DNA of 64,000 nt from Nanobdellati archaeon (GCA_016182015.1 JACOYC010000009.1:6953-70952), one strand, 5' to 3'; positions 11,007 through 37,959 are shown, counted from the stretch's first letter. Translations and numbers: made by a program. Notes: a model not told the origin generated them from the sequence alone.

Positions 11007-11804
11007 TTACTTCTCAACGTATTTCAAATATGCTGCGAGGAAGGAATCAAATTTGCCACAATCAATCTGCTTGATTCCGCCGCGCGAAACCAGGTGCAGA
11101 GAAAATCTGTTCGGAATAGTTGTAGCGTATACTCCGCCAACTACGGGCAGTACAAACTGCCTCTCGGAATAATTCAGAACCATGCCTTCCGGGTGCGGCA
11201 GGCCAGCCAAAAATTCATCAAGCTTATTTTTTGCCCCGGTGGGCTGGCCGGCTTTAGCAGCTTCGCCCAGAAGCCTTGCCAGCTCATCTCCTTTGCCTGC
11301 CAGCCTTGCCCTTGCCATTTCATATGCCTGCAAAAATTCTTCCGCGCCAACGTAAAGCTGTTTCCTAACCCAGCTTGCCTCCAGAAAAAATCTTGCTGAG
11401 CGGCGCATCTCTTCTGTGTAGCAATAAAACCCGTCTCCGTCTGCAGGGTAACTCTGATTTTGCATGCCGAGCGTCCTGAGTGCGGCATCGGTAGTAATCA
11501 TTAGTTCAAGCTCGTTGGGCTGGTCGGTTTCTTCCATTTGTTTTCTGGAAGGCTCGCCTTTTGTTTCTCTTTCTAAATCTGAATATAATTTCAAAAGTTC
11601 AAATTGTTCTGTCAGCCTTTCCCCGCCGCACTCCAAAAGCTCAGCCAGATTTACTGCAACCCTATCCTCTATATCTTTATCTTTCCGTGCCGCGAGCCTG
11701 CAAATATTTCTGTAAAAATCTTTGGGGGAGAGCGGTTTAACTGTCACTCCGCCGTTTTGCGAGCCTGCTGCCTGAACTTCTTTTGCAATCATGGTTTCAC
11801 TCAA
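11007..11804 (-). CDS. hypothetical protein
   Basis: 265-aa ORF, co-directional with its neighbours. No motif recognised. Confidence 0.45.
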   Translation of the reverse strand: MSETMIAKEVQAAGSQNGGVTVKPLSPKDFYRNICRLAARKDKDIEDRVAVNLAELLECGGERLTEQFELLKLYSDLERETKGEPSRKQMEETDQPNELELMITTDAALRTLGMQNQSYPADGDGFYCYTEEMRRSARFFLEASWVRKQLYVGAEEFLQAYEMARARLAGKGDELARLLGEAAKAGQPTGAKNKLDEFLAGLPHPEGMVLNYSERQFVLPVVGGVYATTIPNRFSLHLVSRGGIKQIDCGKFDSFLAAYLKYVEK

Positions 11805-11851
11805 ATGTGAGAATTAGCCTGATTTTTAAGGCTTTGCACACAACGCTAAGG

Positions 11852-13435
11852 TTACGCTTCTTCAAATTCCACGCCGCACTTCGGACACTTTGTTTCCGCG
11901 GCGCTAACATTCCAGCCGCAGGCAGGGCATTCAAACTGTTCACCTTCATCATCTTTATCAGATTCGCCGCCTGCGCCACCTTCCTTAGAACCTTCATCGG
12001 CACTTTTATCTGCTGCCCTCTTCCTATCATCGGCTCCTTCCCCGCTGTCTGCTGGCGTTTGAGATTTGGGTTCTGGCTCGGCTGGCGGTAGGGATGGTGG
12101 TAATGGCCGCTCTTCCCTTACCGGTGGGGGCGCAGGCGCATATGATAATGGTGGAAGTGCTGGCGCTCTAGCCAATAGCGGTCTAGCTGGCGGTGGCGGT
12201 AGCCGTGCGCTGCCGCCATCTTTTTTATCTAGTTCACTATAATAAAATTCCTGCAATTGCCTCCTGTTCTTTTCTATTTCATGTGTGAGTATGCTGCTTT
12301 CTGCTTCTACAACTTTTATCCTGCCAAAAAGTCCTACCTTATATCTTATGACGCCACCGCTGTCCGGCATAACGTAAGTCGCGATTCTGGTATCGCGGTC
12401 AAAACTATTTTTCGGAACAAGACTTTCCAGGCCAGCGCCTGATCGCCCTGCCTCTCCAGCTCCTGCCGGCCTGCTAAATTGCGGTGGAAGTAGTGGTAAT
12501 GGCCGCTCTTCCCTTACCGGTGGGGGCGCAGGCGCATATGATAATGGTGGAAGTGCTGGCGCTCGCAGAGGTGGCGCAGATTCAAACGCCAAATCCAAAA
12601 CAATTTCTAACTCACCCGGCGCAATTTCTTTAGTAACAACATTTTCGTAAAACTCCGCGTGCCCGTCACCGGACTGAATATAAAACTCTCCGTCGAGTTC
12701 CGCGCCAGCAAGTTTTCCGAATCTATTTAAAACTTTTTGCGCCCTGCCTGATGAGGCTTGTAATTGCACGGGTGTTCCGAACGCATCACTTGCCCTTTCT
12801 TGCAGGTCTGGCATGTAAACTTCTAATTCTAAACTCGTTCCACCTTTAGTTATATATTCTAGTGGCGTATCACTTGGCCACCTCGGGGCACTACTTCTTT
12901 CGCCAGCAAGCGCAATTTTCAAATGCTGTATTTTTCCTGGCAAATTATCTTTATTCATCTCTTTGTAAACTCTCAAAACGTATTCGAGCGTGGCATCTGG
13001 ATTCAAATCTTTAATTTCAGCTGGCCACCTGCCGCCCTCGTATGAAACTCTGACTAAATATTTCACTGATGCCACTCCTGACTGTTCGGGCGTCTGTGCA
13101 TCTGGCGCTCTCCCTGGCGCAGGCGGTGCGGGCGGCGTAAATGACTCAAGCTGTCCAAGCCTTTCTTCAAGGCTGGCTTTCTCTGTTGACAGTGCTGTGA
13201 TGCGCGCACCTAACTCTGCCTGCTTCGCTTCTCCGACCGCAGAATAAAATTTTGAACAAAGCTGCGCAATATTAGTAACATCAAATGCAACATCTGGAAA
13301 GGCCTCCTCAAGTTTTCTGCCATCCTTTAGAACTATGCCCTTGTCAGCAGTAACTGTATATTCGATTGGCATTCCGCCAATTCTCGCAGCGACATAAATT
13401 TCATTTGAATTTTCAGCCTTTCCTTCTTCTGCCAT
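11852..13435 (-). CDS. Pro-rich repeat protein with acidic tail and C-terminal zinc ribbon
   Basis: 527 aa. It has two identical copies of APALPPLSYAPAPPPVREERPLP. The C-terminus is FECPACGWNVSAAETKCPKCGVEFEEA (CxxC-x10-CxxC). Confidence 0.6.
   Translation of the reverse strand: MAEEGKAENSNEIYVAARIGGMPIEYTVTADKGIVLKDGRKLEEAFPDVAFDVTNIAQLCSKFYSAVGEAKQAELGARITALSTEKASLEERLGQLESFTPPAPPAPGRAPDAQTPEQSGVASVKYLVRVSYEGGRWPAEIKDLNPDATLEYVLRVYKEMNKDNLPGKIQHLKIALAGERSSAPRWPSDTPLEYITKGGTSLELEVYMPDLQERASDAFGTPVQLQASSGRAQKVLNRFGKLAGAELDGEFYIQSGDGHAEFYENVVTKEIAPGELEIVLDLAFESAPPLRAPALPPLSYAPAPPPVREERPLPLLPPQFSRPAGAGEAGRSGAGLESLVPKNSFDRDTRIATYVMPDSGGVIRYKVGLFGRIKVVEAESSILTHEIEKNRRQLQEFYYSELDKKDGGSARLPPPPARPLLARAPALPPLSYAPAPPPVREERPLPPSLPPAEPEPKSQTPADSGEGADDRKRAADKSADEGSKEGGAGGESDKDDEGEQFECPACGWNVSAAETKCPKCGVEFEEA
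12097..12168 (-). repeat. 72-bp exact direct repeat, copy 1 (inside the 527-aa gene)
   Basis: gtggtaatggccgctcttcccttaccggtgggggcgcaggcgcatatgataatggtggaagtgctggcgctc is identical base for base to 12493-12564. The copies are 396 nt apart and in frame. Confidence 0.95.
12493..12564 (-). repeat. 72-bp exact direct repeat, copy 2
   Basis: Identical to 12097-12168. It encodes the second Pro-rich motif. Confidence 0.95.
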
Positions 13436-13436: not shown

Positions 13437-14810
13437 TTATAATCTGACCTCTGCCTTTCTTCTCACTGGCGCTACGCCAGCAGCCTCTCGCACTTTTTTT
13501 AATTCTGCTCTGGCCTCAGCAACCTCGCCCCACAAGCCCACTGCTGCTTCGTACGCTGGCCTTGCCTGCTCCAATTTTTCTCTTGCTGTTTGCAGCAGTG
13601 CTGCCTGCTCTGTAATTCCGCTGTTAATGTCTGCCAAATCTGCGCCTGAAGCCGCGGCAGAACGCTCTGCAGCCTCAATTTTATCGCTTAGGGTTTGGAG
13701 TGCGGCGCTTAAACCATCAAACCTGACTTGTGCCTGTTCCTGCAATCCTTTAACAGTTTCCAGATACTCATCAACTATTACGCGATATCCATCAAACGCA
13801 CTCTTTGCCTCGCCTTCCTTGACTGTTAGATTATCATCAAATTCCTGCAGCCTGCCTAAAAGCCCCTGCACCTCTTCTGCCTTTTGGTACATCTGCTCCA
13901 GCGCTGTCTTTCGCTCAGCAAATCCGCGAAGTTCAGCTTCAAATCTATTAAATGTATCGCTGAGTTCGGCTGACTTTTCAACAAGACTTGCCTGCTGGCC
14001 ATCAGCATATGTTGTTAATTCATCAATCTTTGTAGCAAGCTGGCCTGCCGCCTCTTCCGCGTTTCCAACCTTTGTGGTAAGCCTGCCTAAGCTGGCTTCC
14101 AAATCAGCGCGCTGGCCTTTCAATGTTTTGGCACTTTCTGCGTGCTGCCCTAACTCTGCCTCTAACCCTGCCAGCTGTGTTTTCACCCGCTCGGCAGTCT
14201 GCGCAGCCACGTCTGCAACACTTGCGTAAGTAACAACCCTTTGCGATGCCTGCTGGAGTTGCTCTTGGTATTCTTCGGTCGCCGAAATAACGCGGCTCAC
14301 GCCCTCTCTGGCCTTTCTCATCTGCTCTGCAAGTTCTACGCGGCCGGCTGCTAAATCAGCAAACCCAGTTTCTGCATTCTGCAATGCCAGCATAGCGGCG
14401 GCAGTTTTTTTCTCTAAGTCTGCAGGCTCTGGTAGCGCGCGTATATCCTTAACTTTTTTCTGAACTTCGGAATAATAATTTATATCTATCCTTCTTGATT
14501 TTCGCGGTCCTGGCAACTCGTTAATTGCTTTTATTTTTGAGGCCAGCGCATCAACATCTGTGGCGTCTATTAGTCTAGCCAGCAACCCGTATTTTTCCAG
14601 CGCTCTAATCGGCGCGTAATGTGCGTCTAAATCTTCTTGGCTAACGCCTTGTGGCAATTCGACCACTAAGTCGCTGAATGCATTAATCAATCCACTTCCC
14701 AAATACTTAAAAATATCATTGCCAACTTTAACTTCCAAAAAGAAACTGCCATCGTCGCTCTTTCTTGGCGCGTATGTTGCTGTACTTCCAGCTTGCCTTT
14801 CGTCTGCCAT
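13437..14810 (-). CDS. coiled-coil protein with small N-terminal beta-rich domain
   Basis: 457 aa. After ~110 aa it consists of long heptad-like Ala/Glu/Gln/Leu helices (…LAGLEAELGQHAESAKTLKGQRADLEASLGRL…). The following gene's start codon lies 1 nt beyond this gene's stop. Confidence 0.55.
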   Translation of the reverse strand: MADERQAGSTATYAPRKSDDGSFFLEVKVGNDIFKYLGSGLINAFSDLVVELPQGVSQEDLDAHYAPIRALEKYGLLARLIDATDVDALASKIKAINELPGPRKSRRIDINYYSEVQKKVKDIRALPEPADLEKKTAAAMLALQNAETGFADLAAGRVELAEQMRKAREGVSRVISATEEYQEQLQQASQRVVTYASVADVAAQTAERVKTQLAGLEAELGQHAESAKTLKGQRADLEASLGRLTTKVGNAEEAAGQLATKIDELTTYADGQQASLVEKSAELSDTFNRFEAELRGFAERKTALEQMYQKAEEVQGLLGRLQEFDDNLTVKEGEAKSAFDGYRVIVDEYLETVKGLQEQAQVRFDGLSAALQTLSDKIEAAERSAAASGADLADINSGITEQAALLQTAREKLEQARPAYEAAVGLWGEVAEARAELKKVREAAGVAPVRRKAEVRL

Positions 14811-14924
14811 TTAATTTCACCAATTAGTGTATACTCCAACAAACGAAAGAGTTTTAAAACTTTCGGCATGCGGCGCCACAAGACAAAGCGAAAGATTTTA
14901 GTAATTATCATTGCAAATAAAACT

Positions 14925-15680
14925 ATGCCAAACATGCACGCAGACCGCGGCCAAAGCCTTGCAGGCAGGGCAATCCTCTGCGAGCGGCATGGGGATTTCC
15001 AGCTGGCCAGAACATTGTACTTGGATGCGGCCAGCGCGTACGCGCGCGCAACAAAATCCGCTGGCTCAAAGGAACTGCAAACAAGCTATCAAAGGCTGAC
15101 AGACATTTACCTTGGCAAGGCAAGACAGCTTCGCGGCAGGCAGAGCAACCAGATAACCCTGCATGACAGCGATAACTTTGGCATAATACTGAGCGAAAAA
15201 AGCTCGCCAAACCCATTCAGGCTGACGTCAGAAATGCAATCAATAGCTGACCGGTGCATCGCCGGCAAAGGCAAAACCGACCTCGAAGGCCGGGCAAATG
15301 CAATTTTTAACTGGCTAAATGATAATATCAAATACGGCGGCAAGAAGCGCGGCAGAGTAGGCTACAGACGGGCCGACGAAGTTATCAAAACCGGCGAAGG
15401 CGTGTGCGGCGAGGATGCATACCCATACATAGTCATGCTGCGCTATGCTGGCCTTGAGGCGCGTTTTATGCTTGTTTACACAGACTGTTATGGTGCGGAT
15501 GTTTTTCATGCCTGCGCGCGCGTTTTAATGCCAAGGGAATTTTCATCGGACGTTGCGTACCATATGTATGATGTTGGGGCTGCTGCCGGCAGCGACCACC
15601 AAAGAATTAAAGTTCTTCCGGACGAAGAGGTTCTTCAAAACGAAGATGCTGTAAAAGTCTTCAGAAGCTGGCGCGGCTAA
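14925..15680 (+). CDS. MIT-like domain fused to transglutaminase-like cysteine protease
   Basis: The ORF track start is 14793. I prefer the ATG at 14925 (MPNMHADRG...), outside the divergent neighbour. The N-terminus GDFQLARTLYLDAASAYARATKS...LTDIYLGKARQLRG resembles the N-domains of the two AAA ATPases. The core GEGVCGEDAYPYIVMLRYAGLEARF ... FHACARV ... YHMYDVG fits the Cys-His-Asp transglutaminase fold. Confidence 0.6.
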   Translation: MPNMHADRGQSLAGRAILCERHGDFQLARTLYLDAASAYARATKSAGSKELQTSYQRLTDIYLGKARQLRGRQSNQITLHDSDNFGIILSEKSSPNPFRLTSEMQSIADRCIAGKGKTDLEGRANAIFNWLNDNIKYGGKKRGRVGYRRADEVIKTGEGVCGEDAYPYIVMLRYAGLEARFMLVYTDCYGADVFHACARVLMPREFSSDVAYHMYDVGAAAGSDHQRIKVLPDEEVLQNEDAVKVFRSWRG

Positions 15681-17812
15681 ACTGCCGGCGGGCGCTGTTC
15701 GGTCTCCTCGAGCTCAATGTCCGGTATTTTTACATCTTTCGGGCCATCATCCGCTGGCTTTTCCGCTGCTGTAACTTCCCTAACTTTCTTAACAACTTTT
15801 CCGGTTCCCTTCTTTATTTTTTCTGCTGCAAGCTGGCGATTTAGATCGGCTATTTGTTGCCCAGCTTCATTTAAACGCGCCGCAGAAGTTTCGGCCTCTC
15901 TTGCCATGATAGCCAGCCGTTCCTCTGCGTTTTTTGCCAGTGCATCTTTTCCAGCAATAATTTGTTTATACATATCATCTTTTTCTTCCAGCATGCTTTC
16001 AAGCATCTTGCGGATTTCTGATTCCGGCGAAGCTGCCAGGCGGGCTTCCAATTGCCTGTCTTTTTCACTCGCCGCCCTTAAATCCCCTTCCAGCCGCAAA
16101 ATATTTTCTCTTGCTGCAATTAACGCAGCAGCATTTTCCCTGCCGGCCTGTGCATCGCTTGCAAGCCTTTCAATATCCATCGCAAATCTGCTCATACCTG
16201 CGCCAAGCTCTGCATTCTCTGGCAGGCCAGCTCGATAGCTCTCTGGAAACATTTCATAAAACTCATTTAATGCGCTAAGCTTCCAGGCCGTAAGTTTTTT
16301 CTTAACCGCTGAATTCAATAAATCCCGCAGGCTGCCCGTTCCGTCGTTAAGATTGCTAATATCAACTGGCGAGCCGGAAAGCTCTGAAATATAAGCTACT
16401 ATCATGCTTCTAAGTTCTGCGCTGCTCTCGCGAATCGCTGCTATATCTTTTTCCTTGCCGCGCACAACTTCGTCGACAGACTTCACAGCCAATTTTAATA
16501 AATCGTCAACTTTCAGATTTTCCATCTTACCTTTAAATTCGGGCTTAACGCGCTCGACAAGCAGTCTCAAAACGTCTGGGATACCATATTTCGAACTGCT
16601 GTTTGCTAAAGCAGTTTTATTTATTTCCTCAAAGACGTAGCGTACTGCGGCCAGCGAATCCGCGCCCCATTTTGAATTATAAGCTGCAACAACATCCTTG
16701 CTCAAACCAAAATCACTAGCTATTTTTTCCAAATGACTGTGCAAGCCAGCCATAAATTTTGCGCGGGCCTGCATCCTTGCGGTATTTTTGCTTTGTATTT
16801 TTTCAAGTAAGTCAAGCGTGGCATCAATGGGGCGCTCATATTTGCTAATATCAGCGTCACTATCTTTTGTCCCCATCGCCTTGAGGATTTCAGTTTCTTT
16901 CTTGATAATCGGCTCCAACTGTTCTAGAAAAATCTCCTCCTGCCGCGAAAACGCCGTATAATGCTTGCCGAAGATTTTGAATAATATATAATATCTGTCT
17001 GTTTCTGGCAGAAGTTCAGGCACATCGCCCGTTTCTATATATATTCCGGAATCATTTACCCGTAATATCCTTTCCCGTCCATCATGTTTTTGCTTTATAA
17101 AAAAACCATTCTTTCCGAGCTCGACGTTTGTTACTATGTTAAGCAAATCTTCAAGCTCTAGATTTTTCTGCTGTGCCGCGGTTGCATCGCGAAACTGCTG
17201 CTCCATTTTTTCATAATTTGCAATTTCGGCGGCTAATTTATTATTTGCTATTTTTTGTTGTTCTTCTGACTCCAAAGCACTGGCCGCGCGCGACTCGGCC
17301 TGCGCCAGCCGTTGCTCTAGCTGTCCCCTTTCGCTGCCAAATCTTGAAGCCTGAATTGTAATCTCCTGCTCCATTGCGGCGGGCCCAAGCAAGTGCTCGG
17401 CAACAGTCCTAAATATGTAACACAAAGTCGCAAGATTGTATTCAAGCTTGCTACCTTCTTTTTTACTTGCTAAATCATAATTAAATAAAGAAAAACCATC
17501 ATCACCGCACTTTGCTAAAATAGAGAGTTTCTTGCCAGTCCAGTCAGTTGTGTGCACTAACAAACTACTTTTATTATAAATATCTACGCCGGAAATGTCA
17601 GAAATTTGCAGCCTAAATCCTTCCTCAGCTAGTACGAGGGCCTGTGATTTTTCAGACAGCTGGCGCGACAAACTTTCCTTCTCGGCCGTAAGACGCGCAT
17701 TTTCAGCCACTACTTTTGGCAGAATTTCCGGCAGTCCTAGCTGTGCTGGCCTGCCAGTCTCTGCATGCGGTTTAACTCCTACTCCATCCAAAGTTTTACT
17801 CGGGGGCGGCAT
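15677..17812 (-). CDS. long coiled-coil protein
   Basis: 711 aa of extended helical heptad regions interrupted by two small beta-rich modules. Its start overlaps the TPR gene stop by 17 nt. Confidence 0.55.
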   Translation of the reverse strand: MPPPSKTLDGVGVKPHAETGRPAQLGLPEILPKVVAENARLTAEKESLSRQLSEKSQALVLAEEGFRLQISDISGVDIYNKSSLLVHTTDWTGKKLSILAKCGDDGFSLFNYDLASKKEGSKLEYNLATLCYIFRTVAEHLLGPAAMEQEITIQASRFGSERGQLEQRLAQAESRAASALESEEQQKIANNKLAAEIANYEKMEQQFRDATAAQQKNLELEDLLNIVTNVELGKNGFFIKQKHDGRERILRVNDSGIYIETGDVPELLPETDRYYILFKIFGKHYTAFSRQEEIFLEQLEPIIKKETEILKAMGTKDSDADISKYERPIDATLDLLEKIQSKNTARMQARAKFMAGLHSHLEKIASDFGLSKDVVAAYNSKWGADSLAAVRYVFEEINKTALANSSSKYGIPDVLRLLVERVKPEFKGKMENLKVDDLLKLAVKSVDEVVRGKEKDIAAIRESSAELRSMIVAYISELSGSPVDISNLNDGTGSLRDLLNSAVKKKLTAWKLSALNEFYEMFPESYRAGLPENAELGAGMSRFAMDIERLASDAQAGRENAAALIAARENILRLEGDLRAASEKDRQLEARLAASPESEIRKMLESMLEEKDDMYKQIIAGKDALAKNAEERLAIMAREAETSAARLNEAGQQIADLNRQLAAEKIKKGTGKVVKKVREVTAAEKPADDGPKDVKIPDIELEETEQRPPAV

Positions 17813-26322: not shown

Positions 26323-26790
26323 TTATACGCGATATGCTCCCTGAATAGTGCCTTCCACAATTTGCAGGTCATACACGATAACTTTTTTCTCTGGATCTTC
26401 TTTTACCCTGCCCAACTTACCTATCTGCTGGACATCTATTTTTTTTGTTGGCATTGGCCTGCCTGTTGCCCGATCTATTTGGCAGGGCGCCTTATTATTA
26501 TTAATATCCATGTGTATTCCCTTTGGCTTCTGCGCCAGCAGGCCTATGTCGCTCAAAACTTTTGCTTCCTCTGGAGACTGACCCGCACCAGTATACAGGA
26601 GCGTAGAGAGAGAATCCAAAGTCAAACCATGCCGCATTTCTATTGGGATTTCGCGAACTATAACATCTCCGCCTAATGCCGTGCTTAGGCTGCCGATCCA
26701 CGGCAACTGGTATACTTCTTCTTCAGACATTTTCCTTTTTTCTTCGCTCTGCGAGAAATCAAATAACGCTTCTATGCTATCCACACCCAT
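26323..26790 (-). CDS. hypothetical 155-aa protein (positional candidate for the modifier of the E1/JAB module)
   Basis: ORF 35 nt upstream of the 477-aa gene. It ends ...VIVYDLQIVEGTIQGAYRV with no GG terminus and no recognisable ubiquitin motif. Confidence 0.4.
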   Translation of the reverse strand: MGVDSIEALFDFSQSEEKRKMSEEEVYQLPWIGSLSTALGGDVIVREIPIEMRHGLTLDSLSTLLYTGAGQSPEEAKVLSDIGLLAQKPKGIHMDINNNKAPCQIDRATGRPMPTKKIDVQQIGKLGRVKEDPEKKVIVYDLQIVEGTIQGAYRV

Positions 26791-28629: not shown

Positions 28630-29988
28630 TCAGCTAGCAACAATCTCATATCCCACACCTAAGCTGCCGAAGTCCAGCTCTCTCAAACTCCCCAATTTTA
28701 GTTTAGCTTTTACAAAATCGTCAATGAGATCTTCTCTGACAAAACTGCGCAAATCATCCGCTTCTATTCTTAAGCTACTGGCGGCCGGGTTTTTTTCACG
28801 CGCCACTTTTCTTAACATTCCGTCAGTTGTCATCGGTTTCTGATTGTCACCGGAAAAATAGGGCGCAAAATGTTTTGCAACCGGATTGTTCTCATCATAA
28901 ATCAGGCGCCTGCTGCTTAAGTCGTAACACATAACTGCAGAATCTGCCAGCTGCGTGTTTCTGAAAAATTTTGCCACATTTTCCCGCACCCCTTCCGCAA
29001 CAAAGACAAATACTTTCTGGCCTTCGCCTGCAACCTTATGTATAAAGTCGGTCATGTCTTTGTCGCTCTTTAGTTTGAATGATAGATAGGTCAGCGCCTC
29101 AGAGAAATAAACGCATTCTATGCCCAAACCTTTTTGCAATGTTCTGCCCTTAACTGTGCCGCGGATGCTACATGTTTTGTGTGTGTCATCTATTTTTTCA
29201 CAGAGCAGGTCATCCGGCGGGCCTGCCCACCAAGACCATCGCGCATCAAGTATTGGGACTTTTCCGTTTGGCCAGTAGTCCGGCACATAATTTTTCAGCA
29301 GGCTCATCGCGCTGGCCATGTAGCTCTTTGCGCCTACGCTCAGGCTTGATTGTGATGCTGCAATGCTTGTCCTGCGCGCGGCTTCCTGCGCGCCAAGGCG
29401 TTCTTCCAGGCTGTCATGCACGCGCGTGCCTGGCCAGCGGAATGTCTCGCGCAGGTGCTGGTCGGGATAAACATAATCATATTTTATTACATCGGAAGGA
29501 ACTCTTTCCCAGATATTATTTAATTGTACAGCTAACGCTGTTGTTGCTATAAAATTATTTTCATTAATCGCGCCCTTTGCTTTTTCATCGCGGAGCAGAA
29601 CAACCTGATAGTTAAGTACATTTGCATACTCGCGCATCTGGGCAAAAAAATCGCGCTGGCGTTCCTGTGCCTGCCTGTCAACACTTCTGTTTGCTCCCCT
29701 GCCCTTAAAATTTCTCAGCGTATAACCGCGGACATTTGCCGAAAGAATTTCAAGCTGTCTTTTCAGCTCAGGGTCACCGCGCAAAAGCTCTGCGACGCCA
29801 ATCGCACCATTAACACTATCCAAAACATCATCGCGCAGGCCTGTTGTTTCCCTTCTTGCCTGCATCTGCGGCGTGCCATGCATCACGCGATAGGCAAGCT
29901 TTATAACATACGCGCCAGGGCCGTCTGCATACTGTATATACTGCCAAAGCTGGCTAAGCCCCAGACCAGCGACAAGCGCGGCAACCAA
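28630..29988 (-). CDS. hypothetical protein
   Basis: 452-aa ORF between the SPFH/TPR gene and the AAA pair. No family recognised. Confidence 0.45.
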   Translation of the reverse strand: MVAALVAGLGLSQLWQYIQYADGPGAYVIKLAYRVMHGTPQMQARRETTGLRDDVLDSVNGAIGVAELLRGDPELKRQLEILSANVRGYTLRNFKGRGANRSVDRQAQERQRDFFAQMREYANVLNYQVVLLRDEKAKGAINENNFIATTALAVQLNNIWERVPSDVIKYDYVYPDQHLRETFRWPGTRVHDSLEERLGAQEAARRTSIAASQSSLSVGAKSYMASAMSLLKNYVPDYWPNGKVPILDARWSWWAGPPDDLLCEKIDDTHKTCSIRGTVKGRTLQKGLGIECVYFSEALTYLSFKLKSDKDMTDFIHKVAGEGQKVFVFVAEGVRENVAKFFRNTQLADSAVMCYDLSSRRLIYDENNPVAKHFAPYFSGDNQKPMTTDGMLRKVAREKNPAASSLRIEADDLRSFVREDLIDDFVKAKLKLGSLRELDFGSLGVGYEIVAS

Positions 29989-30055: not shown

Positions 30056-31345
30056 TTATTCGCTCGGCAATTCCCCGCCCGAGGACTTGCCTTCTATTTT
30101 AACCGGCGGCCTGGCCATGTCGCTTTTGTATCTTTCAATCATGTCAAGCAAATCCTTAAATTCATCTCTTTCGCCGCTTCTTTCTATCTGCTGTTCCGCG
30201 AGCGTGAACCACGGGCCAAGCGTTGATGGCTTTTGCGAAATTGCCTGCTGGAAATCCGCGAGCGTTACCTGCCTTGCCTGCCCGCCCGAGCTCAGCGCCT
30301 CTCTGAATGGAATATCTGCAGCTAATTTCACAACTTCAGCAATATCTGCCGCAGAATACCACTCTGTCATGCCTGCAAGCGCAATATAATTTACTGAAGT
30401 TTCAACTGGCCGCGAGCTGCACTCTTTCTCAAAAATTGCTGTGCGCATTTCCAGGTCTGGCGGCGAAACCAAAACGTGCTTGCTAAACCTTCCGCTTCTT
30501 CTTAGCGCAGGGGCGATCTCCCATGGCTTGTTTGTAGAAGCTAAAATCAGGGATTTTTCCGGCCGTTCCTGCAGGCCATCCATCTGGGCAAGCAGTGTGT
30601 TGACTGCCTTGACTCTTTTTTTGTTGGCCAGCGAGTCAAACTCATCAAAATACATAATCGACGGTGAATTTTCCCTCGCAAATTCAAATGCTGTCACTAT
30701 GTTGCGCTCTGTCTCGCCCTCGCCGCTTTTCAATAAATTGTACGGCATGACAAACAGAAATGTTGCATTGCCCTCGCCTGCTGCTGCCTTTGCAACAAAA
30801 GTCTTTCCGCAGCCTGGCGGGCCGTAGAGCAGGACGGCTTCTGAAGTCTGCTTTCCGTAAGCCTGATAAAGTTCCGGGCGCGTGAATGGATAAACCAAAA
30901 CCTCATTTATGATTTGCTTAACTACTGGCATGCCAACAACATCATCAAGCTTGACATTTGGCCTTTCAATTAAAAGGAAATCTGGAACATCTTCTTTCTT
31001 TTCATCTATTGTTGGTTTTTCCGGCGCGATTTTCTTTGGGTCCGGCGGCGGAACTGGCTTTGAAGGCGCAACCGGAATTGCTGGCACTGGCTGGGGCGGC
31101 GGTGGAATTACACTTTTTCCAACACCGGGCGCATACCTTTTTGCTATTTCGAGGCATTGCTGGCCTCGCTTGAGATGATCCCTGCTCTCACGATTCTGCT
31201 GAATCCTTGATGCCTGAACATAAAGGTCTGCAGCTTCCAGGTAGCATCTGCGGGCTTCAGAAAAATCCCGCGAACGTTCGTGCTTCATGGCCGATGTATA
31301 CAAACCGTCCGCCCTTCCTACTAGTTCTTCAAGTTTCTGTGACAT
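30056..31345 (-). CDS. MIT-AAA+ ATPase, Vps4/CdvC-like, paralog with degenerate pore loop
   Basis: 429 aa. The N-terminal three-helix segment is FSEARRCYLEAADLYVQASRI...CLEIAKRY, followed by a Pro-rich linker. Walker A is LLYGPPGCGKT and Walker B is IMYFDEFDSL. The SRH is TNKPWEIAPALRRSGRFSK. The pore-loop position reads LLKSGEGETE and lacks an aromatic residue. Confidence 0.75.
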   Translation of the reverse strand: MSQKLEELVGRADGLYTSAMKHERSRDFSEARRCYLEAADLYVQASRIQQNRESRDHLKRGQQCLEIAKRYAPGVGKSVIPPPPQPVPAIPVAPSKPVPPPDPKKIAPEKPTIDEKKEDVPDFLLIERPNVKLDDVVGMPVVKQIINEVLVYPFTRPELYQAYGKQTSEAVLLYGPPGCGKTFVAKAAAGEGNATFLFVMPYNLLKSGEGETERNIVTAFEFARENSPSIMYFDEFDSLANKKRVKAVNTLLAQMDGLQERPEKSLILASTNKPWEIAPALRRSGRFSKHVLVSPPDLEMRTAIFEKECSSRPVETSVNYIALAGMTEWYSAADIAEVVKLAADIPFREALSSGGQARQVTLADFQQAISQKPSTLGPWFTLAEQQIERSGERDEFKDLLDMIERYKSDMARPPVKIEGKSSGGELPSE

Positions 31346-31346: not shown

Positions 31347-32579
31347 TTAGTTTTTTGGCAAATATCTTCTTATTAGATTTACTAAATCCGGATACTCTGA
31401 TGCTTCGCCGCTCCTTTCAATTTCGTTTTTTGCCTTAACAAGCCAAGGCACTAATGATTTTTTTGTCTGCGAAAGAGCTGTTTGAAAATCTCTAATAACT
31501 ACCGGCCTTTCTGACTTGCCTTCCAAAGACACTTCTTTTGCGATAATTTGCTTTGCACTTTTAGCGATATCAACGATATCCGCACTGGTGTAGCCTTCGG
31601 TATTCTGCGCCAGCCAGTCGTAATCTGCAGGATGAAGACTTACAAGTTCTGCCGTTGTATTTAACTGAAAAATTTTCTTTCTGGCGGGAGCATCTGGCAA
31701 GGGAACAAACACAGTTCTGTCAAGCCTGCCAGGCCTTCGGACTGCGGGATCAACTGCCCATGGCCTGTTTGTAGTTGCCATCCAAAATACCGGCTTCGCT
31801 GCATCTTTGCTTGAAAAGCCATCCATGCTGGACAGTATTTGATTCACGAGCCTTGCTGTATGTGATGCGTCTGCTGAGTCTCTGGAAACACCAAGCGCGT
31901 CAATCTCATCTAAGAATATTATGCTCGGCGCGTTTTTTATTGCGTCTTCAGTCATTCTTGAAAAATGCTGCTCCGACTCACCGACATATTTACTCAAAAT
32001 ATCGCTTATCTTTACGTTATAAAAATTTGCCTTGCACTGGCCTGCTGCTGCCCTGCCGATAAATGTTTTTCCGCAGCCTGGCGGGCCGTAAAGCAAAATG
32101 CCGCCGCCGGGTTTCAAGCCCAGCCGTTGGTAAAGCTGCGGCGACATCATCGGCTGTATTATACTAAGGCGTATCTCTTCTTTGACATCATCAAGGCCAG
32201 CCACCTGTTCAAAAGTCATGTCTGACTTCTCGGGCTTGATTTCAAATGTTTCTTCCAGAGAACTAGAATCGCCTCCACCACCCTGTCTGACTTGAATGCG
32301 CGGTGGTGGCTGCGGGGCGAGGGCTCTGCCTTTTTCCACGTACAACCTTGCTAAATTTTCCCAGCTTTTTCTGTCGGCTTCTGAGCTGGTTAGCCTTGCA
32401 GCATTAGCATACTCTTCTGCAGCTCTTAGATAAAGTTGCCGCGAACGTTCAAAGCCATATTGTGCGCGGCTAGTGTCAGCTGGCAAGAGAGACTTAGCCT
32501 CCTCCTCGAGTCTGCGTGCTTCATTAGAGTAGCCAAGCCCTCTGGCTGCTGTAACCCTGGGTTCATTGCCAGCTGACAT
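31347..32579 (-). CDS. MIT-AAA+ ATPase, Vps4/CdvC-like, paralog with canonical pore loop
   Basis: 410 aa. The N-terminus is FERSRQLYLRAAEEYANAARL...LARLYVEKGRAL. Walker A is LLYGPPGCGKT and Walker B is IIFLDEIDAL. The pore loop is SKYVGESE. The SRH is TNRPWAVDPAVRRPGRLDR. There is a 1-nt gap to the paralog downstream. Confidence 0.75.
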   Translation of the reverse strand: MSAGNEPRVTAARGLGYSNEARRLEEEAKSLLPADTSRAQYGFERSRQLYLRAAEEYANAARLTSSEADRKSWENLARLYVEKGRALAPQPPPRIQVRQGGGGDSSSLEETFEIKPEKSDMTFEQVAGLDDVKEEIRLSIIQPMMSPQLYQRLGLKPGGGILLYGPPGCGKTFIGRAAAGQCKANFYNVKISDILSKYVGESEQHFSRMTEDAIKNAPSIIFLDEIDALGVSRDSADASHTARLVNQILSSMDGFSSKDAAKPVFWMATTNRPWAVDPAVRRPGRLDRTVFVPLPDAPARKKIFQLNTTAELVSLHPADYDWLAQNTEGYTSADIVDIAKSAKQIIAKEVSLEGKSERPVVIRDFQTALSQTKKSLVPWLVKAKNEIERSGEASEYPDLVNLIRRYLPKN

Positions 32580-33946: not shown

Positions 33947-35092
33947 TCACCCGATTAGCGAGAGCGTATCGCCCTGCTTATCAACTTCCCTTCCATAAAC
34001 TTTCTTAAACAGTTTTACAACATCATCATTATTTAATCTGAGCGCAGTGCGCAGCCTTGGCAGGCCAAACATTTCACCGCCAGAGCCTAAAGACAAAAGC
34101 GAATCCGTCTGCGTCTCTCTAAATTCATCTAGGTAAGCCCGCAGTCCATCAGTCTCTGCAGTCGGGTCGAAATAATGCTTGAACAGCCTTGCCCGCGCAT
34201 CGCCCTGATTGTAGATTAATTCTTCATCCCTGAAATTCCAGCAGAAAGGCAGGTAATTTGGGTGCTCGAACTGCCTGAACAGAGTGCTTATTCCTGCGCG
34301 GGACATATTATCAACAACAAAACATTCAACTACAAACTGCTTGCGCCTGTGCGCCTCTTCCGCCCGGCTAATCAAGCTGTCCTTCCGCGCAGTTGGCGAA
34401 AGCGAAAGCTCAATTGAAAATAAAGAATATTCGCAGCGCACCGCGAGCGGCCTTGCAAGCAGGCCCGTCTTTACCTCGCCGGCAACAGCGATTCCGTCCT
34501 CGCGCAACAATTTAGGATCCCAACTGCCATCGCCCAAAAACGCGCCCGGCGCATAAAGCGGCATCTGGGCAGCCATCTTAGTTCTAACTGCTAAAACATA
34601 CATTGCACCGGGTATGCGCGTCGTTCCACTGCCAATTGCAGAAACATGCCCATGGAGCTGCTTAATCTGCTCAATATTTTCTTCATATGCCTGCATTCTT
34701 GCCGGCAGCTCTGCCTGTGCCCTGCCAACTAATGTATTCTTATCGAATTTAATATCTTGTAATTTCACGCCGCGCGCAGCTGCCTGCAAATATGTTTGGC
34801 TGTGCACGACATATCTGTTCAGCTCTCTGGCCTCAGTTTCAAAATCCAGCTCTTTGCCAGAAATCGCTGCAGCATATATAGAATCTAATGCTGACAAGAT
34901 TATCTCGCAATTATTTCTTTCAACTAAGTCATGCACGCTTTTTTCCAGCCCGTTACATACCAGAGAAAAATTTTGGAGTAGTTCCTGCGTCCTGGCAATT
35001 TGTTTCCACCAGTCCTGCCTGTTTTGCTTGGCGTGCTGCTGCAATATCTGCCGCAGATTTTCTGCTACCTGTAGCTTGCTTTCCAGTGTCAT
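33947..35092 (-). CDS. hypothetical protein, first gene of the minus-strand array
   Basis: 381 aa, 4 nt upstream of the 244-aa gene. It ends ...VDKQGDTLSLIG. No family recognised. Confidence 0.45.
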   Translation of the reverse strand: MTLESKLQVAENLRQILQQHAKQNRQDWWKQIARTQELLQNFSLVCNGLEKSVHDLVERNNCEIILSALDSIYAAAISGKELDFETEARELNRYVVHSQTYLQAAARGVKLQDIKFDKNTLVGRAQAELPARMQAYEENIEQIKQLHGHVSAIGSGTTRIPGAMYVLAVRTKMAAQMPLYAPGAFLGDGSWDPKLLREDGIAVAGEVKTGLLARPLAVRCEYSLFSIELSLSPTARKDSLISRAEEAHRRKQFVVECFVVDNMSRAGISTLFRQFEHPNYLPFCWNFRDEELIYNQGDARARLFKHYFDPTAETDGLRAYLDEFRETQTDSLLSLGSGGEMFGLPRLRTALRLNNDDVVKLFKKVYGREVDKQGDTLSLIG

Positions 35093-35114
35093 ACTACTAA
35101 ATGTCAGTTAAAAA

Positions 35115-35170
35115 AGCTTAAATAGCTTTCGCTTCGGCTGCTTTTAAGCCTTCCGAAAGCTTATTAAATT
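35115..35170. promoter_or_regulatory. compact divergent promoter region with two TATA-like boxes
   Basis: cttaaata at 35117-35124 (tatttaag on the minus strand) lies ~28 nt from the minus ATG at 35092. ttattaaa at 35161-35168 lies ~27 nt from the plus ATG at 35192. This spacing suggests leaderless or short-leader transcripts. An 8-bp inverted repeat agctttcg/cgaaagct lies between the boxes. Confidence 0.35.
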
Positions 35171-35191
35171 TTACGCATTAAGCGGCGGCAT

Positions 35192-36079
35192 ATGGCACTC
35201 AGCCAATGGAGAACTTCTGAACAGGTAATCGCAAGATATGCAAAACCGGGATTTCTGGAAGGCTTCGCGGTTGACTCCAGCGAATATGCAATTATTTTGA
35301 AAGGCGGCGCGCTGACAGGCTATGTAATCTCTGGCGGAATAGTCAAAAGAAGTTTTTGGGATATTTTTGGAAAAACAAGTTTCATTTTCGCGGATGGCCG
35401 GCCACGGCAAATCTACGCAGCAATTAGCGCAGTATCCGCGGATTCGCTTGAAATCGTTGCCGATATCGCACTGAACTATAAAATAGAACCTAACTTAATG
35501 CAAAATCTTGCCGGCATGATAAACAGCACAAAAACTATTCTGCTCGGCAGCGATTTAGAGAGTGTGCTGAGAAGCGAAGGCATTGAACAGAAAATTAAGG
35601 AAATCGCAGGCCAGCATAAGGGTTACGAACTGCAGACAAAAATTAAGGCGCTTGACGGCTTGCGGCAGCAATATATAAGATACGGAATCACAGTACAAAG
35701 CTGTACGATAAACTGGCGATACACGCAGGATGTTTTGACACAGATAGAAATTAAACGGCAGGATTTGCAAAGGCAACGCGACACGGCTACTACATTGACA
35801 GATATAAATCGCATCAGACAGCAAATGCAAATTTTAGACGAACAATTAAAATTTTATGACTTACAAATTCATGCGGCAAAAAAAGAAGCAGAGCTTGCAA
35901 GGGTGAAGGCAGCAGCAAGCCCTGAGCTTGCCCGCAGGGATGCAGAGCACGCCGCGCAAATTGAGCAGGAAAAAAGAGAGCTGGACATGTTAGTGGAACT
36001 GCAAAAGAAGCGCGGCGCAGGGGCAGGCCCGATGATTATCGGCGGGACGATTAATATTGGTGGGGAGAAAAAGCAGTAA
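35192..36079 (+). CDS. SPFH/band-7-like protein with C-terminal coiled coil
   Basis: 295 aa. ...SADSLEIVADIALNYKIEPNLMQNL... resembles the SPFH core by eye. The C-terminal region is a charged coil (QRQRDTATTLTDINRIRQQMQILDEQLKFYDLQIHAAKKEAELARVKAAA). Confidence 0.45.
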   Translation: MALSQWRTSEQVIARYAKPGFLEGFAVDSSEYAIILKGGALTGYVISGGIVKRSFWDIFGKTSFIFADGRPRQIYAAISAVSADSLEIVADIALNYKIEPNLMQNLAGMINSTKTILLGSDLESVLRSEGIEQKIKEIAGQHKGYELQTKIKALDGLRQQYIRYGITVQSCTINWRYTQDVLTQIEIKRQDLQRQRDTATTLTDINRIRQQMQILDEQLKFYDLQIHAAKKEAELARVKAAASPELARRDAEHAAQIEQEKRELDMLVELQKKRGAGAGPMIIGGTINIGGEKKQ

Positions 36080-36107: not shown

Positions 36108-36249
36108 GACAAAGTCATACCGCCTGCCCAAAACATTCTTCACATCAAACGCGCCCGCACCTGCCGCATTGAGCTGTGCCAGCTGCGCCCATAGCACCAC
36201 AGTAGCGGCAATTAGAAGGTTGGGACTGCGGCATTTGTGGAATTTCTTG

Positions 36250-37959
36250 CTATCCCCCAGACTTTTTTTTCTGTTCCGCATACCCTGCCAGTCCCATAAG
36301 CGTAAGAACGCCGCCAAGCAAGCCTCCGCCAATCCCTCCCCAGCCCCAGCCAAAATATAAACTAAGTGGCCAGCCAACTGCGGCTGCGCCAATAAATGGA
36401 CTTAATATTGCCAAGCCGTCATTTTTTCCGAAATAAAGGAAAGGGGTGCCGATTAGTGTTCCAGTTACGCCGCCAAGCAACGCGCCGCGGAGGTGGTGTG
36501 TTAATACCCACTGATTCATCGCATTTAATATTAACTCTCTTAATTCATCATACGACTCCCAAGTGTGTATCTTGCTCATATAATCAGTCGCTACGTAGTG
36601 TTCCAAAACATCATTAGACAATGAGGATTTTAAATTTAAAATATTAGATAGAGGAGATAGTGGATCATAGCTTCCTCCCGACCACCACGGCGGATCCTGC
36701 GAATTCGCGCCAATCGCCCACCCAACCCCTGCGCCAAACAACCCCAACAACGTACCAGCGCCGTACCACAAAGCAGGCCATTCTTTATGATGCGCCAAAT
36801 GAAAAGGCAATGCAATGGCAGTCCCTAGCGCTCCGCCGGCAACCGTAGCAGCAGCCACGGTATTGGTCGGCTGCCCCAGCGCAGTTGCCAAGCCAATCAA
36901 GCCGCCAGTAACGCCGCCGGTAAATATGCTGGAAATCGCAGAAAGGGTTCTGCTGTTATGGTCTTTTATTAATTCCTCAAGCCCGCTGTCCTGGCCCGCA
37001 CCAAGCTGTTTTGCTTTTTTATAGCACTTTATTGCCTTTCTATTCTCCCACCACTGCCAGAATTTTTTATCCGCAATTTCTTTGTGCAGCCTTGCCTTCC
37101 CAAGCCAGATGTTCGGCTGGTTTGGATTTATCCGCAGCGCGGTTTCATAGGTTTCCGCTGCCTGTTCTGGCAGGCCTGCCTTTATCAGCAAGCTCCCGCG
37201 CCAAACCAGATATTCAAGATTTTCCGGATTCCTCTGCAGTTCACCGCCAAGAATGCCCGCGGCCTCTGCATGCCTGTTTAGCTTTTCGAGCGCGGAAACT
37301 TTTTCTTTAATTATGTCGTTATCGGGTTTTATTTTAAGTGCGTTGTCAAGGCAGCCAATCGCCTCTGCGTATTCGCCAAATCTATTTAGCATAAATCCGC
37401 GCAGGTACCAAGGCCACGCCTCTTTATAGTGCAGCTTTACCTGTTCATCGCAGAACTCTATCGCCTCTTGCTTTTTATTATTCTGCGCATAAAGTTCCAT
37501 CTTCTTAAAAAGTGTCGGCAAATGATTCTGCCAGACTTCCAATGCCCAATCGTAGTAAAAGTCTGTCGCCCTGAAGCTTCCGCCTGCTGCGTGGCCCATC
37601 AAAAACTGGTAAAATATATCTGAAGCGCCTTGGGTATCGCCCCACCCGCACATTTCCTGATAGAATCTATTTGCCTCGTCCTTCCGGTTTGTTTCACCAA
37701 ATCTACCGCCGCGCCGAGCGACAGCAGTCTCCACTAAAATATCAAGCTTGCTGTGCGCGGCCCGCCTGTGCTGCGGCGATAGTTCAAGAACTCGGTCGTA
37801 ACATTCCAGCTCGCCCTCGCGCTGGCCTGCATTGCTTAATACCTTCGCCTTGCCCAGCCACAAATCTACATCGTCCGGCCTAATCTGGAGCAGCGTGTCA
37901 TACTGCTGCAAAGCGAATGTACGGTCTTCAAGGGTTTGCGGCATTTTTGTAAAGCGCAT
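36250..37959 (-). CDS. TPR-repeat protein with C-terminal Gly-rich multi-TM region, ends in Gly-Gly
   Basis: 569 aa. The N-terminal ~330 aa are TPR-like units. The C-terminal ~230 aa contain several Gly-zipper hydrophobic segments (GGVTGGLIGLATALG, GTLLGLFGAGVGWAIG, GGIGGGLLGGVLTLMGLAG). The C-terminus is ...AEQKKKSGG. Confidence 0.55.
   Translation of the reverse strand: MRFTKMPQTLEDRTFALQQYDTLLQIRPDDVDLWLGKAKVLSNAGQREGELECYDRVLELSPQHRRAAHSKLDILVETAVARRGGRFGETNRKDEANRFYQEMCGWGDTQGASDIFYQFLMGHAAGGSFRATDFYYDWALEVWQNHLPTLFKKMELYAQNNKKQEAIEFCDEQVKLHYKEAWPWYLRGFMLNRFGEYAEAIGCLDNALKIKPDNDIIKEKVSALEKLNRHAEAAGILGGELQRNPENLEYLVWRGSLLIKAGLPEQAAETYETALRINPNQPNIWLGKARLHKEIADKKFWQWWENRKAIKCYKKAKQLGAGQDSGLEELIKDHNSRTLSAISSIFTGGVTGGLIGLATALGQPTNTVAAATVAGGALGTAIALPFHLAHHKEWPALWYGAGTLLGLFGAGVGWAIGANSQDPPWWSGGSYDPLSPLSNILNLKSSLSNDVLEHYVATDYMSKIHTWESYDELRELILNAMNQWVLTHHLRGALLGGVTGTLIGTPFLYFGKNDGLAILSPFIGAAAVGWPLSLYFGWGWGGIGGGLLGGVLTLMGLAGYAEQKKKSGG

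Follow-up and report, generated by a model that had tools for sequence, protein, structure and literature searches.

The 64,000-nucleotide stretch analyzed here, referred to as the window, comes from the genome of a Nanobdellati archaeon (GCA_016182015.1, JACOYC010000009.1:6953-70952). Its open reading frame (ORF) listing contains a cluster of about 25 kb (11007-36079), in which genes for two proteins resembling ESCRT-III (a part of the endosomal sorting complexes that are required for transport) and for two AAA ATPases with MIT-like domains are found in line with genes for a JAMM metallopeptidase and an E1-like enzyme. Comparison of sequences, profiles, and gene neighborhoods suggests, with somewhat better than even probability, that this cluster is a lineage-specific ESCRT-like membrane-remodeling system of a small Woesearchaeota-type DPANN clade, genetically coupled to an E1-like/JAMM protein-modification module.

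Gene content and layout of the cluster

Read downward between 35092 and 15677, the minus strand carries 13 genes in a row (Table 1), and the spacers calculated from their coordinates are 4, 10, 9, 1, 67, 23, 46, 35, -1, 15, 0, and -17 nt. The stop of the 477-aa gene overlaps the JAMM (JAB) gene start by 1 nt, and the start of the 1495-aa gene abuts the stop of the E1-like gene. Beyond this run lie one plus-strand gene and then three genes on the minus strand, separated by 1 and 47 nt. On the right side are a 295-aa gene on the plus strand and a gene for a TPR protein of 569 aa. An earlier reading of the sequence alone (the sequence-only reading) had given this gene order and these spacers, all of which the ORF listing reproduced exactly, and its labels for two AAA proteins, JAB, ThiF, TPR, transglutaminase core, and zinc ribbon were borne out by Pfam. 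The plus-strand transglutaminase gene is convergent with the 711-aa gene; its likeliest start is ATG 14925, giving 251 aa, and not TTG 14793, as in an 83% identical orthologue of 251 aa in the same orientation. Membership of the 265-aa gene in the cluster is uncertain.

Table 1. Genes, putative promoter regions, and promoter-like boxes of the cluster, in window coordinates
Feature	Coordinates	Strand	Evidence or remark
295-aa protein, N-terminal alpha/beta domain and coiled coil	35192..36079	+	Divergent from 381-aa gene
Putative divergent promoter region	35093..35191	.	Two inverted CGAAAG + TATA-like boxes
381-aa orphan, first gene of long unit	33947..35092	-	ORF, orthologue
ESCRT-III-like protein A, 244 aa	33208..33942	-	Profile-profile comparison
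ESCRT-III-like protein B, 202 aa	32589..33197	-	Profile-profile comparison
AAA1, 410 aa: MIT-like domain, Pro-rich linker, single AAA+ domain	31347..32579	-	Pfam AAA 2e-39
AAA2, 429 aa: MIT-like domain, long Pro-rich linker, AAA+ domain	30056..31345	-	Pfam AAA 1e-30
452-aa orphan, hydrophobic N-terminus, between cluster halves	28630..29988	-	Orthologue
589-aa protein: N-terminal domain akin to 295-aa protein, long coiled coil, C-terminal TPR	26837..28606	-	Pfam TPR
155-aa orphan	26323..26790	-	Orthologues
477-aa orphan, conserved Cys and His residues	24854..26287	-	ORF, homologues
JAMM/MPN+ metallopeptidase, 330 aa	23862..24854	-	Pfam Prok-JAB 7e-7
E1-like enzyme, 520 aa, two ThiF/MoeB-type Rossmann halves	22284..23846	-	Pfam ThiF 5e-40
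1495-aa TPR protein, putative scaffold	17796..22283	-	Pfam TPR families
711-aa coiled-coil protein, last gene of long unit	15677..17812	-	Orthologues; no family match
MIT-like domain and transglutaminase-like (papain-fold) Cys-His-Asp domain, 251 aa	14925..15680	+	Pfam Transglut_core 1e-13
Second putative divergent promoter region	14811..14924	.	Palindromic CGAAAG-TTTTAAAA box
457-aa coiled-coil protein, first gene of separate three-gene unit	13437..14810	-	Weak coiled-coil Pfam matches
527-aa Pro-rich protein, C-terminal zinc ribbon	11852..13435	-	Pfam Zn_ribbon_3 5e-6
265-aa orphan	11007..11804	-	Cluster's left end
Promoter-like box of 381-aa gene	35130	-	
Promoter-like box of 295-aa gene	35155	+	
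Promoter-like box of transglutaminase gene	14890	+	
Promoter-like box of 457-aa gene	14864	-	
Promoter-like box of 698-aa gene	10989	-	Gene outside cluster

ESCRT-III-like proteins

The two small helical proteins of 202 and 244 aa were compared by hhalign with a reference of five CHMP/Snf7 sequences, which were entered by hand and which Pfam confirms as Snf7 family at 1e-16 to 1e-58. The 202 family (four orthologues) matched this reference at a probability of 92.9% (E 3.8e-7), in an alignment that is collinear over 154 columns from the N-terminus (columns 5-164 against 2-167), and the reversed control gave 0.2%. For the 244 family, the probability was 45-54% with the same reference and 84-87% (E 4-8e-6) with a profile merged from 202 and Snf7, the reversed controls being at 0.1%. 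A further 13 proteins of the window, among them coiled coils, remained at 1% or less. When the whole PDB was searched with the 244 profile, the sole match was an ESCRT-III chain (9fn1_U, E 0.039).

The N-terminus of the 202 family reads LF(R/K)..(T/S)P.(Q/E)L, as in CHMP2A, CHMP3, and CHMP4B, and near the C-terminus lies a MIM1-like helix (EDLVARLKAQ, NLEERLYAQ, or DLEEKIFAK) comparable to DLEERLKNL of CHMP2A. An AlphaFold2 (AF2) model of the 202-aa protein, built from the single sequence without an alignment (predicted local distance difference test score [pLDDT] 67), places helices at 16-53, 57-108, 115-152, 159-170, and 178-200, a predicted pattern that fits ESCRT-III. The 244-aa protein combines a conserved aromatic N-terminus (LDRLADWWYR) with a Snf7-like helical core and an acidic, Pro-rich tail, and the genes for the MIT-AAA proteins are located directly downstream of both. 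From these profile and motif comparisons, homology to ESCRT-III is likely for the 202-aa protein, where we hold it with considerable confidence, and likely also for the 244-aa protein, where our confidence is more modest. A relationship to PspA was considered as well and was ruled out, as hhalign detected no similarity.

The MIT-like domains and their enzymes

The N-termini of AAA1, AAA2, and the transglutaminase protein align together. The six best PDB matches of their common MIT profile include the MIT domains from calpain-7 (E 0.01), from a chitin synthase of an oomycete (E 0.04), and from human VPS4A (E 0.67 and 0.86). For AAA2, the best BLAST partner is yeast Vps4 (a sequence entered by hand), aligned over 15-353 including the MIT domain, and the MIT region of AAA1 is 38% identical (E 9e-6) to that of a relative's transglutaminase protein. 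A hidden Markov model scan of all 516 window ORFs returned only these three MIT proteins. The MIT labels of the sequence-only reading are therefore coherent across AAA1, AAA2, and the transglutaminase protein, although the individual matches supporting them are weak (Pfam MIT on AAA2 at 1e-3 and the profile matches above).

Both ATPases show the architecture of Vps4/CdvC, with an N-terminal MIT domain, a linker, and one AAA+ domain. Vps4 is recognized operationally in the 2024 archaeal ESCRT survey by a MIT domain and ESCRT-III neighbors (PMC10936438), and AAA1 and AAA2 have both. Pore loop 1 is intact in AAA1 (SKYVGESE), for which 68% identical orthologues were found, and lacks the aromatic residue in AAA2 (KSGEGETE), a state that is kept in the AAA2 orthologue (relative locus L008). 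AAA2 also retains the Walker A and B motifs and the arginine fingers, and its C-terminal tail, GKSSGGELPSE, is conserved.

The E1-like/JAMM module

The ThiF match of the E1-like protein covers two stretches, and in the PDB search residues 21-176 match MoeB and residues 256-415 match ThiF. Its N-terminal half is degenerate, with neither DxD nor NLNRQ, and its C-terminal half is canonical, with GGGAIG (GxGxxG), ADGD (DxD), and NLNRQ; the same holds for both halves in the orthologue. Formally, the protein would thus resemble the adenylation domains of eukaryotic E1 as a single-chain "inactive plus active" tandem, and it scores far below every ThiF/MoeB equivalog cut-off of NCBIfam. The metal site of the JAMM protein is intact (E...HxHx7SxxD, read as "HTHPYFSCEHSDTD") and is accompanied by a 190-aa C-terminal extension, so that the peptidase looks active from its motif. 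In PADLOC, JAB models match the JAMM protein, and E1-E2 models match the E1-like protein partly (7e-14, adenylation core); no E2 domain, CD-NTase, ubiquitin-like (Ubl), or effector model matched among the cluster proteins.

A modifier and an E2 were sought among the other members. The 155 family has a conserved Gly near a C-terminus of variable length, with 4 to 10 residues remaining after the Gly (..QGAYRV, ..QGAYRTGTPWYV, ..VGYVKIPD), and on this pattern the 155-aa protein may be regarded as a speculative candidate for a small modifier. A second copy of the 155-aa family is present in relative locus L008. A ubiquitin-like domain in the 527-aa or 155-aa protein found no support, as hhalign of the single sequences gave no signal. 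The 477-aa protein was rejected as an E2 (motif NHQ...GLCV) for want of an hhalign or PDB signal, its AF2 model having a pLDDT of 35, and the 381-aa protein was rejected as an E2 or UEV protein (motif HPNYLPFC), its Cys not being conserved and no E2/UEV or PDB signal being found. The motif "FEHPNYLPFCWNF" in the 381-aa protein resembles the E2 motif HPN...C, with the Cys replaced by Gly in the orthologue.

Conservation and linkage in relatives

The gene order of the cluster recurs in two other metagenome-assembled genomes (MAGs), GCA_053535855.1 and Woesearchaeota nzgw42, at amino acid identities from 29% (TPR) up to 84% (AAA2). Taken alone, 13 genes on one strand that are never more than 67 nt apart would be weak evidence, but because two other genomes preserve their order at 29-84% identity, the genes can be considered real and under selection. 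In GCA_053535855.1, with proteins named by length in amino acids, one contig carries 200, AAA1, AAA2, and 182, and another carries (589-like), 161, 473, JAB, E1, TPR1483, 712, transglutaminase (opposite strand), and 425+. In nzgw42, one contig carries 307 (divergent), 385, 239, 199, AAA1, and the N-terminus of AAA2, and another carries the C-terminus of AAA2, 113, 148, 60, 455, 603, 157, 461, JAB, E1, TPR1546, and 565+. The AAA2 gene of nzgw42 is thus split over two contig ends and thereby links the ESCRT-like and E1/JAB halves. Overall, the halves (381, two ESCRT-III-like, and two MIT-AAA proteins on one side and E1/JAB on the other) co-occur in all three genomes having either, so that the co-occurrence of ESCRT-like, MIT-AAA, and E1/JAB genes, which the sequence-only reading had seen in a single genome, extends to two more.

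A third paralogue of ESCRT-III-like type, with lengths of 148 and 182 aa, is also present in the relatives; it matches the 202 family at 97% probability in hhalign, is absent from the window, and ends LCARVDAEL. Extra small genes, including those for 113 and 60 aa, lie between AAA2 and the 452 homologue in the relatives (L010, 193-1343; L008, 3323-4091). Relative locus L009 has a gene start beside the transglutaminase gene, in the position of the 457-aa gene, with a sequence that runs past the compared locus.

The families are rare. A word-indexed search of 5.8 billion clusters returned only two relatives of the 244-aa protein and three of the 477-aa protein (an identical one and two others), three true relatives of the 202-aa protein were found among 1.84 billion representatives, and two scans of JGI metagenomes returned none. 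The stretch from the 569-aa gene to AAA2 was reproduced by independent Logan assemblies from four runs.

Predicted transcription units

CGAAAG + TATA-like boxes are located 35-57 nt upstream of five genes (Table 1), and a sixth sits in the spacer between the 589-aa and 155-aa genes. In the region between the divergent 381-aa and 295-aa genes, which contains an inverted repeat (35113-35131/35154-35172), the boxes stand 37-38 nt before the ATGs, a distance that suggests that both are leaderless first genes. Sequence inspection showed no Shine-Dalgarno-like motif ahead of the 381-aa gene; such motifs, of GGTG or GAGG type, precede 8 or 9 of the 12 internal genes, and a GGTG motif precedes the 457-aa gene. 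The second divergent region has a palindromic box at 14845-14864, and one more box stands 35 nt ahead of the ATG of the transglutaminase gene. Judged by these arrangements, the two divergent intergenic regions look like shared bidirectional archaeal promoters. The left border of the cluster, near 10990, is formed by a promoter-like box at 10978-10989. The motif was counted 19 times against 7.5 +/- 3.1 expected, an enrichment that is indicative only, as the motif was defined after the fact, and the same box also precedes other window genes (10989, 41336, and 48728).

The sequence-only reading had taken the genes as one single co-directional array. The boxes, which resemble the B recognition element (BRE) and TATA element, and the orientation of the genes do not bear this out; the cluster instead reads as at least four transcription units with two divergent promoter regions.

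Orphan, TPR, and coiled-coil proteins

An assignment of the 589-aa and 295-aa proteins to the SPFH family, as proposed from the sequence alone, failed in three comparisons. Band_7 was sub-threshold in one of four members (E 0.007-0.028), the PDB profile search gave no SPFH match, and hhalign against E. coli QmcA, HflK, and HflC gave 0.2-0.3%, so that an SPFH identity is not supported at the sequence level. The N-terminus of the 589-aa protein and the 295 family are instead paralogues of each other (87%, E 4e-6 in hhalign). A 57% identical orthologue of the 295-aa protein takes the same divergent position (relative locus L006), and orthologues of the 589-aa protein are 47-61% identical.

No relative of the 381-aa protein was found in Pfam, NCBIfam, PADLOC, or the PDB, and it is among the best conserved members, being 69% identical to its nzgw42 orthologue when the ESCRT-III-like proteins reach 32-34%. 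The 452-aa and 711-aa proteins had no family match in Pfam, PADLOC, or NCBIfam; the former has a 54% identical orthologue in the same position (relative locus L010) and the latter has orthologues at 41% and 34% identity. The 477-aa protein had no match in the PDB. Orthologues of the 1495-aa TPR protein are 1483 and 1546 aa long. The 527-aa gene contains an 84-nt direct repeat (12085-12168/12481-12564, 94% identical, 396 nt apart) that duplicates the proline-rich segment RAPALPPLSYAPAPPPVREERPLP. On the right, the 569-aa TPR membrane protein noted earlier is present as described, although it was not seen in any relative locus compared. No transmembrane segment was predicted in the core proteins.

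Host and surrounding genes

The assignment to an archaeal, DPANN host was confirmed. The 477-aa protein shares 100% identity with a protein encoded on an 84-kb contig, NCBI MBI2040686.1 ("hypothetical protein HYT16_01155 [DPANN group archaeon]"); among species-representative genomes, a homologue occurs only in Candidatus Woesearchaeota archaeon isolate nzgw42; and the window contains the archaeal markers aIF2-alpha and a PriL-like primase subunit. A bacterial host, as could be read from the leucyl-tRNA synthetase (LeuRS) gene that adjoins the cluster (41993-45202, +), is ruled out by the same four observations. This LeuRS is of bacterial type (leuS_bact, TIGR00396, 3.7e-274, against leuS_arch, 1e-68), with Thermus as its best PDB match, and its presence in an archaeal contig is probably the result of horizontal acquisition. 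Its ORF has about 105 additional N-terminal residues ahead of the LeuRS alignment.

The neighbors of the cluster are housekeeping genes, and the window is even in its GC content. The annotation of the window shows no integrase, mobile-element, or viral signs, a viral scan found no relatives in viral contigs, and no tRNA and no Rfam features were found in the window. To the right of the cluster lie a PHP-domain DNA polymerase of family X (53093-54814, +) and a PAC2 protein of the proteasome assembly chaperone type (58341-59141, +). Genes for membrane-anchored proteins with Ig-like, CARDB-like, or FixG_C-type domains occupy both flanks (3160-10932 and 39244-41325, -), on the same strand as the cluster.

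A proposed model of the system and its weaknesses

When the results for the separate proteins are placed in the context of their shared neighborhood, a mechanism can be proposed for an ESCRT-like membrane-remodeling system coupled to protein modification. The ESCRT-III-like proteins would polymerize on the cytoplasmic face of the membrane, with their N-terminal hydrophobic or basic motifs as the likely membrane contacts, and their C-terminal MIM1-like helices would recruit MIT domains. AAA1, with its intact pore loop, could thread the polymer and so disassemble or remodel it, and AAA2, which lacks the pore-loop aromatic, may serve as a regulatory or adaptor subunit. The MIT-protease might be brought to the ESCRT-III-like polymer in the manner of calpain-7 in eukaryotes. 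It is further conceivable that a putative modifier is adenylated at its C-terminal carboxylate by the E1-like enzyme; the 155-aa protein is a speculative candidate for this modifier, possibly after being trimmed by the JAMM peptidase. The JAMM peptidase could also reverse the modification, which would mark cargo or regulate the polymer, and the TPR and coiled-coil proteins would serve as scaffolds. Possible cellular roles include division, vesicle budding, membrane repair, and host-cell contact.

Several results weigh against this interpretation. The ESCRT-III-like label that the sequence-only reading gave to both proteins is upheld by profile-profile comparison and not by Pfam, in which no Snf7 (PF03357) match was found, even at E <= 10, for the 244-aa protein, the 202-aa protein, or three relatives. 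Foldseek with the 202 model of pLDDT 67 returned BAR domains first and CHMP1B at ranks 8 and 18, with no match below E 1e-3. No ESCRT-I or ESCRT-II components were found in the cluster. The AAA domains score at least as well on CDC48 and PAN as on CdvC; in NCBIfam, AAA1 obtains 208 bits for CDC48, 202 for PAN, and 193 for CdvC, and the CdvC scores of the two ATPases (193 and 164) compare with a cut-off of 650. Both carry RRPGR/RRSGR and not the RRRF of Vps4, and a beta-domain insert is lacking. Because of the CDC48-like scores, the RRPGR/RRSGR motifs, and the missing insert, sequence signatures would place AAA1 and AAA2 outside the Vps4 clade, although they may work like Vps4.

The tagging half meets similar objections. 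No ubiquitin-like or ThiS/MoaD-like domain was detected in 20 cluster proteins by hhalign against ubiquitin, NEDD8, and SUMO or ThiS and MoaD (1.1% or less), a comparison of single sequences with low sensitivity. Neither an E2 nor a TSG101 UEV signal was found by hhalign in the 381, 452, and 477 families, and the cluster contains no Pfam UQ_con match. Because no ubiquitin-like modifier and no E2 are detectable, it is the E1-like/JAMM pair by itself that argues for protein tagging, and of the ubiquitin-like module described by the sequence-only reading these two enzymes are what remains. The Snf7, E2, ubiquitin, and Vps4 reference sequences were, moreover, entered by hand, and only those for Snf7 and PspA were validated by Pfam. 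Finally, because the families are confined to about four lineages, the system does not belong to the core functions of DPANN, and an accessory or conflict role is conceivable for it. We regard the evidence for the key homologies as moderate and not conclusive. As for the single system coupling tagging to membrane remodeling that the sequence-only reading had envisaged, the linkage of its halves in three genomes stands, whereas the SPFH label and the one-unit array do not.

Alternative explanations

A more far-reaching interpretation, which we advance only tentatively and would rather doubt than accept, is that of a complete DPANN ESCRT-like machine with a ubiquitin-like pathway whose modifier, possibly the 155-aa protein, has diverged beyond recognition, built independently of the Asgard/eukaryotic one. 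Its building blocks would have been a CDC48-like ATPase that acquired a MIT domain, an E1 forming a pseudo-heterodimer within one chain, and the MIT-protease. If it were true, the coupling of tagging to ESCRT would have arisen more than once or would predate the Asgard-eukaryote lineage, and ESCRT-III would not be absent from DPANN.

The cluster could also be read as an accessory system for conflict, defense, or stress, in which invading or damaged proteins would be the targets of a CDC48-like unfoldase pair together with a protease, TPR sensors, and an E1/JAMM conjugation module as in Bil and type II CBASS. The helical proteins would then be adaptors or PspA-like membrane protectors and not a division or budding machine. 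We consider this unlikely. The distribution is indeed extremely narrow and patchy, the AAA domains are nearest CDC48/PAN and match the IetA and TRIP13 defense models of PADLOC, weak E1-E2 and JAB matches were obtained from the same source, and several members evolve fast (29-37% identity, with others at 68-69%). However, the PADLOC matches cover generic adenylation and JAB cores only, with no E2, CD-NTase, or effector, and three MIT-like domains beside Snf7-like profiles follow the logic of ESCRT. The housekeeping neighbors, the absence of mobile-element genes, and the lack of relatives in viral contigs also speak against a conflict system.

It could also be argued that an AAA/helical-protein operon and an E1/JAB/TPR operon are unrelated neighbors that lie adjacent by chance in close genomes. 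Spacers of 67, 46, and 35 nt and the box in the 589/155 spacer permit internal starts, relatives insert genes between AAA2 and the 452 homologue, and only three genomes were compared. Against this, order is held at 29-54% identity for many members, a range in which unselected synteny usually decays, and no genome was found with one half only. The third MIT protein, furthermore, is encoded at the outer end of the E1/JAB half, and the domain paralogues 589 and 295 are distributed one to each half. A chance adjacency is accordingly improbable in our judgment.

Bacterial operons that combine an E1, a JAMM protein, and a small carrier of sulfur-carrier type are established. The E1-like/JAMM pair might by this precedent perform sulfur-carrier chemistry of the ThiS/MoaD/CysO/QbsE type, for the synthesis of a cofactor or thio-compound, with no protein tagging at all. 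The best family matches of the E1-like protein are ThiF and MoeB, and no ubiquitin-like protein was found, but no ThiS/MoaD-like carrier was found either and the cluster contains no biosynthetic genes. With an E1 that is a tandem pseudo-dimer far below the ThiF/MoeB equivalog cut-offs and a JAB protein with a 190-aa extension, this explanation seems very improbable. An assembly or binning artefact, that is, a chimeric bacterial-archaeal contig as might be suspected from the adjoining bacterial-type LeuRS, is essentially excluded because independent Logan assemblies (four runs) reproduce the stretch from the 569-aa gene to AAA2. In addition, the order recurs in two other MAGs, the contig itself carries archaeal markers, and the GC content of the window is even.

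Significance and comparison with known systems

A 2025 review reports ESCRT-III homologues in all major archaeal lineages except DPANN (PMC7619361). In the 2024 archaeal ESCRT survey (Makarova), a link with ubiquitin is established in Asgardarchaeota, a link with SPFH is described for Meth_adaptin loci, and DPANN, JAB, and transglutaminase are not mentioned (PMC10936438). Full-text literature searches returned no description of the present cluster, and the pairing of ESCRT-like and ubiquitin-type enzymes has so far been described only for eukaryotes and Asgard archaea. As ESCRT-III/Vps4 systems are used for reconstructing early archaeal cell biology and eukaryogenesis, the ESCRT-like membrane-remodeling interpretation would, if confirmed, fill the DPANN gap in the distribution of ESCRT-III and provide a second, independent case of ESCRT-like genes tied to an E1/JAMM module. 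It would also supply natural variants for experimental work, namely a CDC48-like ATPase bearing a MIT domain, its paralogue with a dead pore loop, a transglutaminase fused to a MIT domain, and an E1 built as a tandem in a single chain. With the cluster come about eight families of orphan proteins whose conservation is restricted to this system.

Among known systems, PspA/Vipp1 with an SPFH partner, which belongs to the bacterial ESCRT-III superfamily, shares the placement of helical membrane-associated proteins beside alpha/beta-plus-coiled-coil proteins. In contrast, hhalign shows no PspA similarity, SPFH homology of 589/295 is unsupported, and PspA systems have no MIT-AAA partner. The bacterial Bil and type II CBASS Cap2/Cap3 systems likewise have adjacent E1-like and JAB genes, and their models match weakly here in PADLOC. 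In contrast to them, the cluster has no detected E2 domain, CD-NTase, BilA-like Ubl, or effector, the matches are confined to the adenylation core, and the context is ESCRT-like in an archaeal host.

The fusion of a MIT domain to a papain-fold cysteine enzyme recalls calpain-7, AMSH, and USP8, and the calpain-7 MIT domain is the best PDB match of the MIT profile. The catalytic domain is, however, of transglutaminase-core type with a single MIT domain, unlike calpain-7, and the JAMM protein has no MIT domain, unlike AMSH. With the archaeal ESCRT-III/Vps4 systems (Cdv, euryarchaeal "Main," Thermoplasmata, Halo_FHA, and Meth_adaptin), the cluster shares the core of ESCRT-III and a MIT-AAA protein, to which accessory proteins specific to the lineage, coiled-coil proteins, and zinc ribbons are added. 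CdvA, wH proteins (arCOG09748), and adaptin-like domains were not detected in the cluster, its AAA proteins reach 193 bits against the CdvC cut-off of 650, and it is linked to E1/JAB, whereas those systems are not.

The ubiquitin-coupled ESCRT of Asgard archaea and eukaryotes (Hatano 2022; PMC10936438) also unites ESCRT-III-like, MIT-AAA, E1-type, and MPN/JAMM proteins, in one neighborhood, and MIT-bearing enzymes appear to be recruited beside the ATPase in a comparable way, calpain-7 and AMSH being the examples there. It differs in its components, as no homologue of ubiquitin, E2, RING, UEV/Vps23, Vps28, or ESCRT-II (Vps22/25) is detectable in the cluster, the ESCRT-III-like proteins fall below Pfam Snf7 thresholds, and the AAA proteins lie outside the Vps4 clade by signature. 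What the cluster has in turn are two tandem MIT-AAA paralogues, a single-chain tandem ThiF E1, and a DPANN host.

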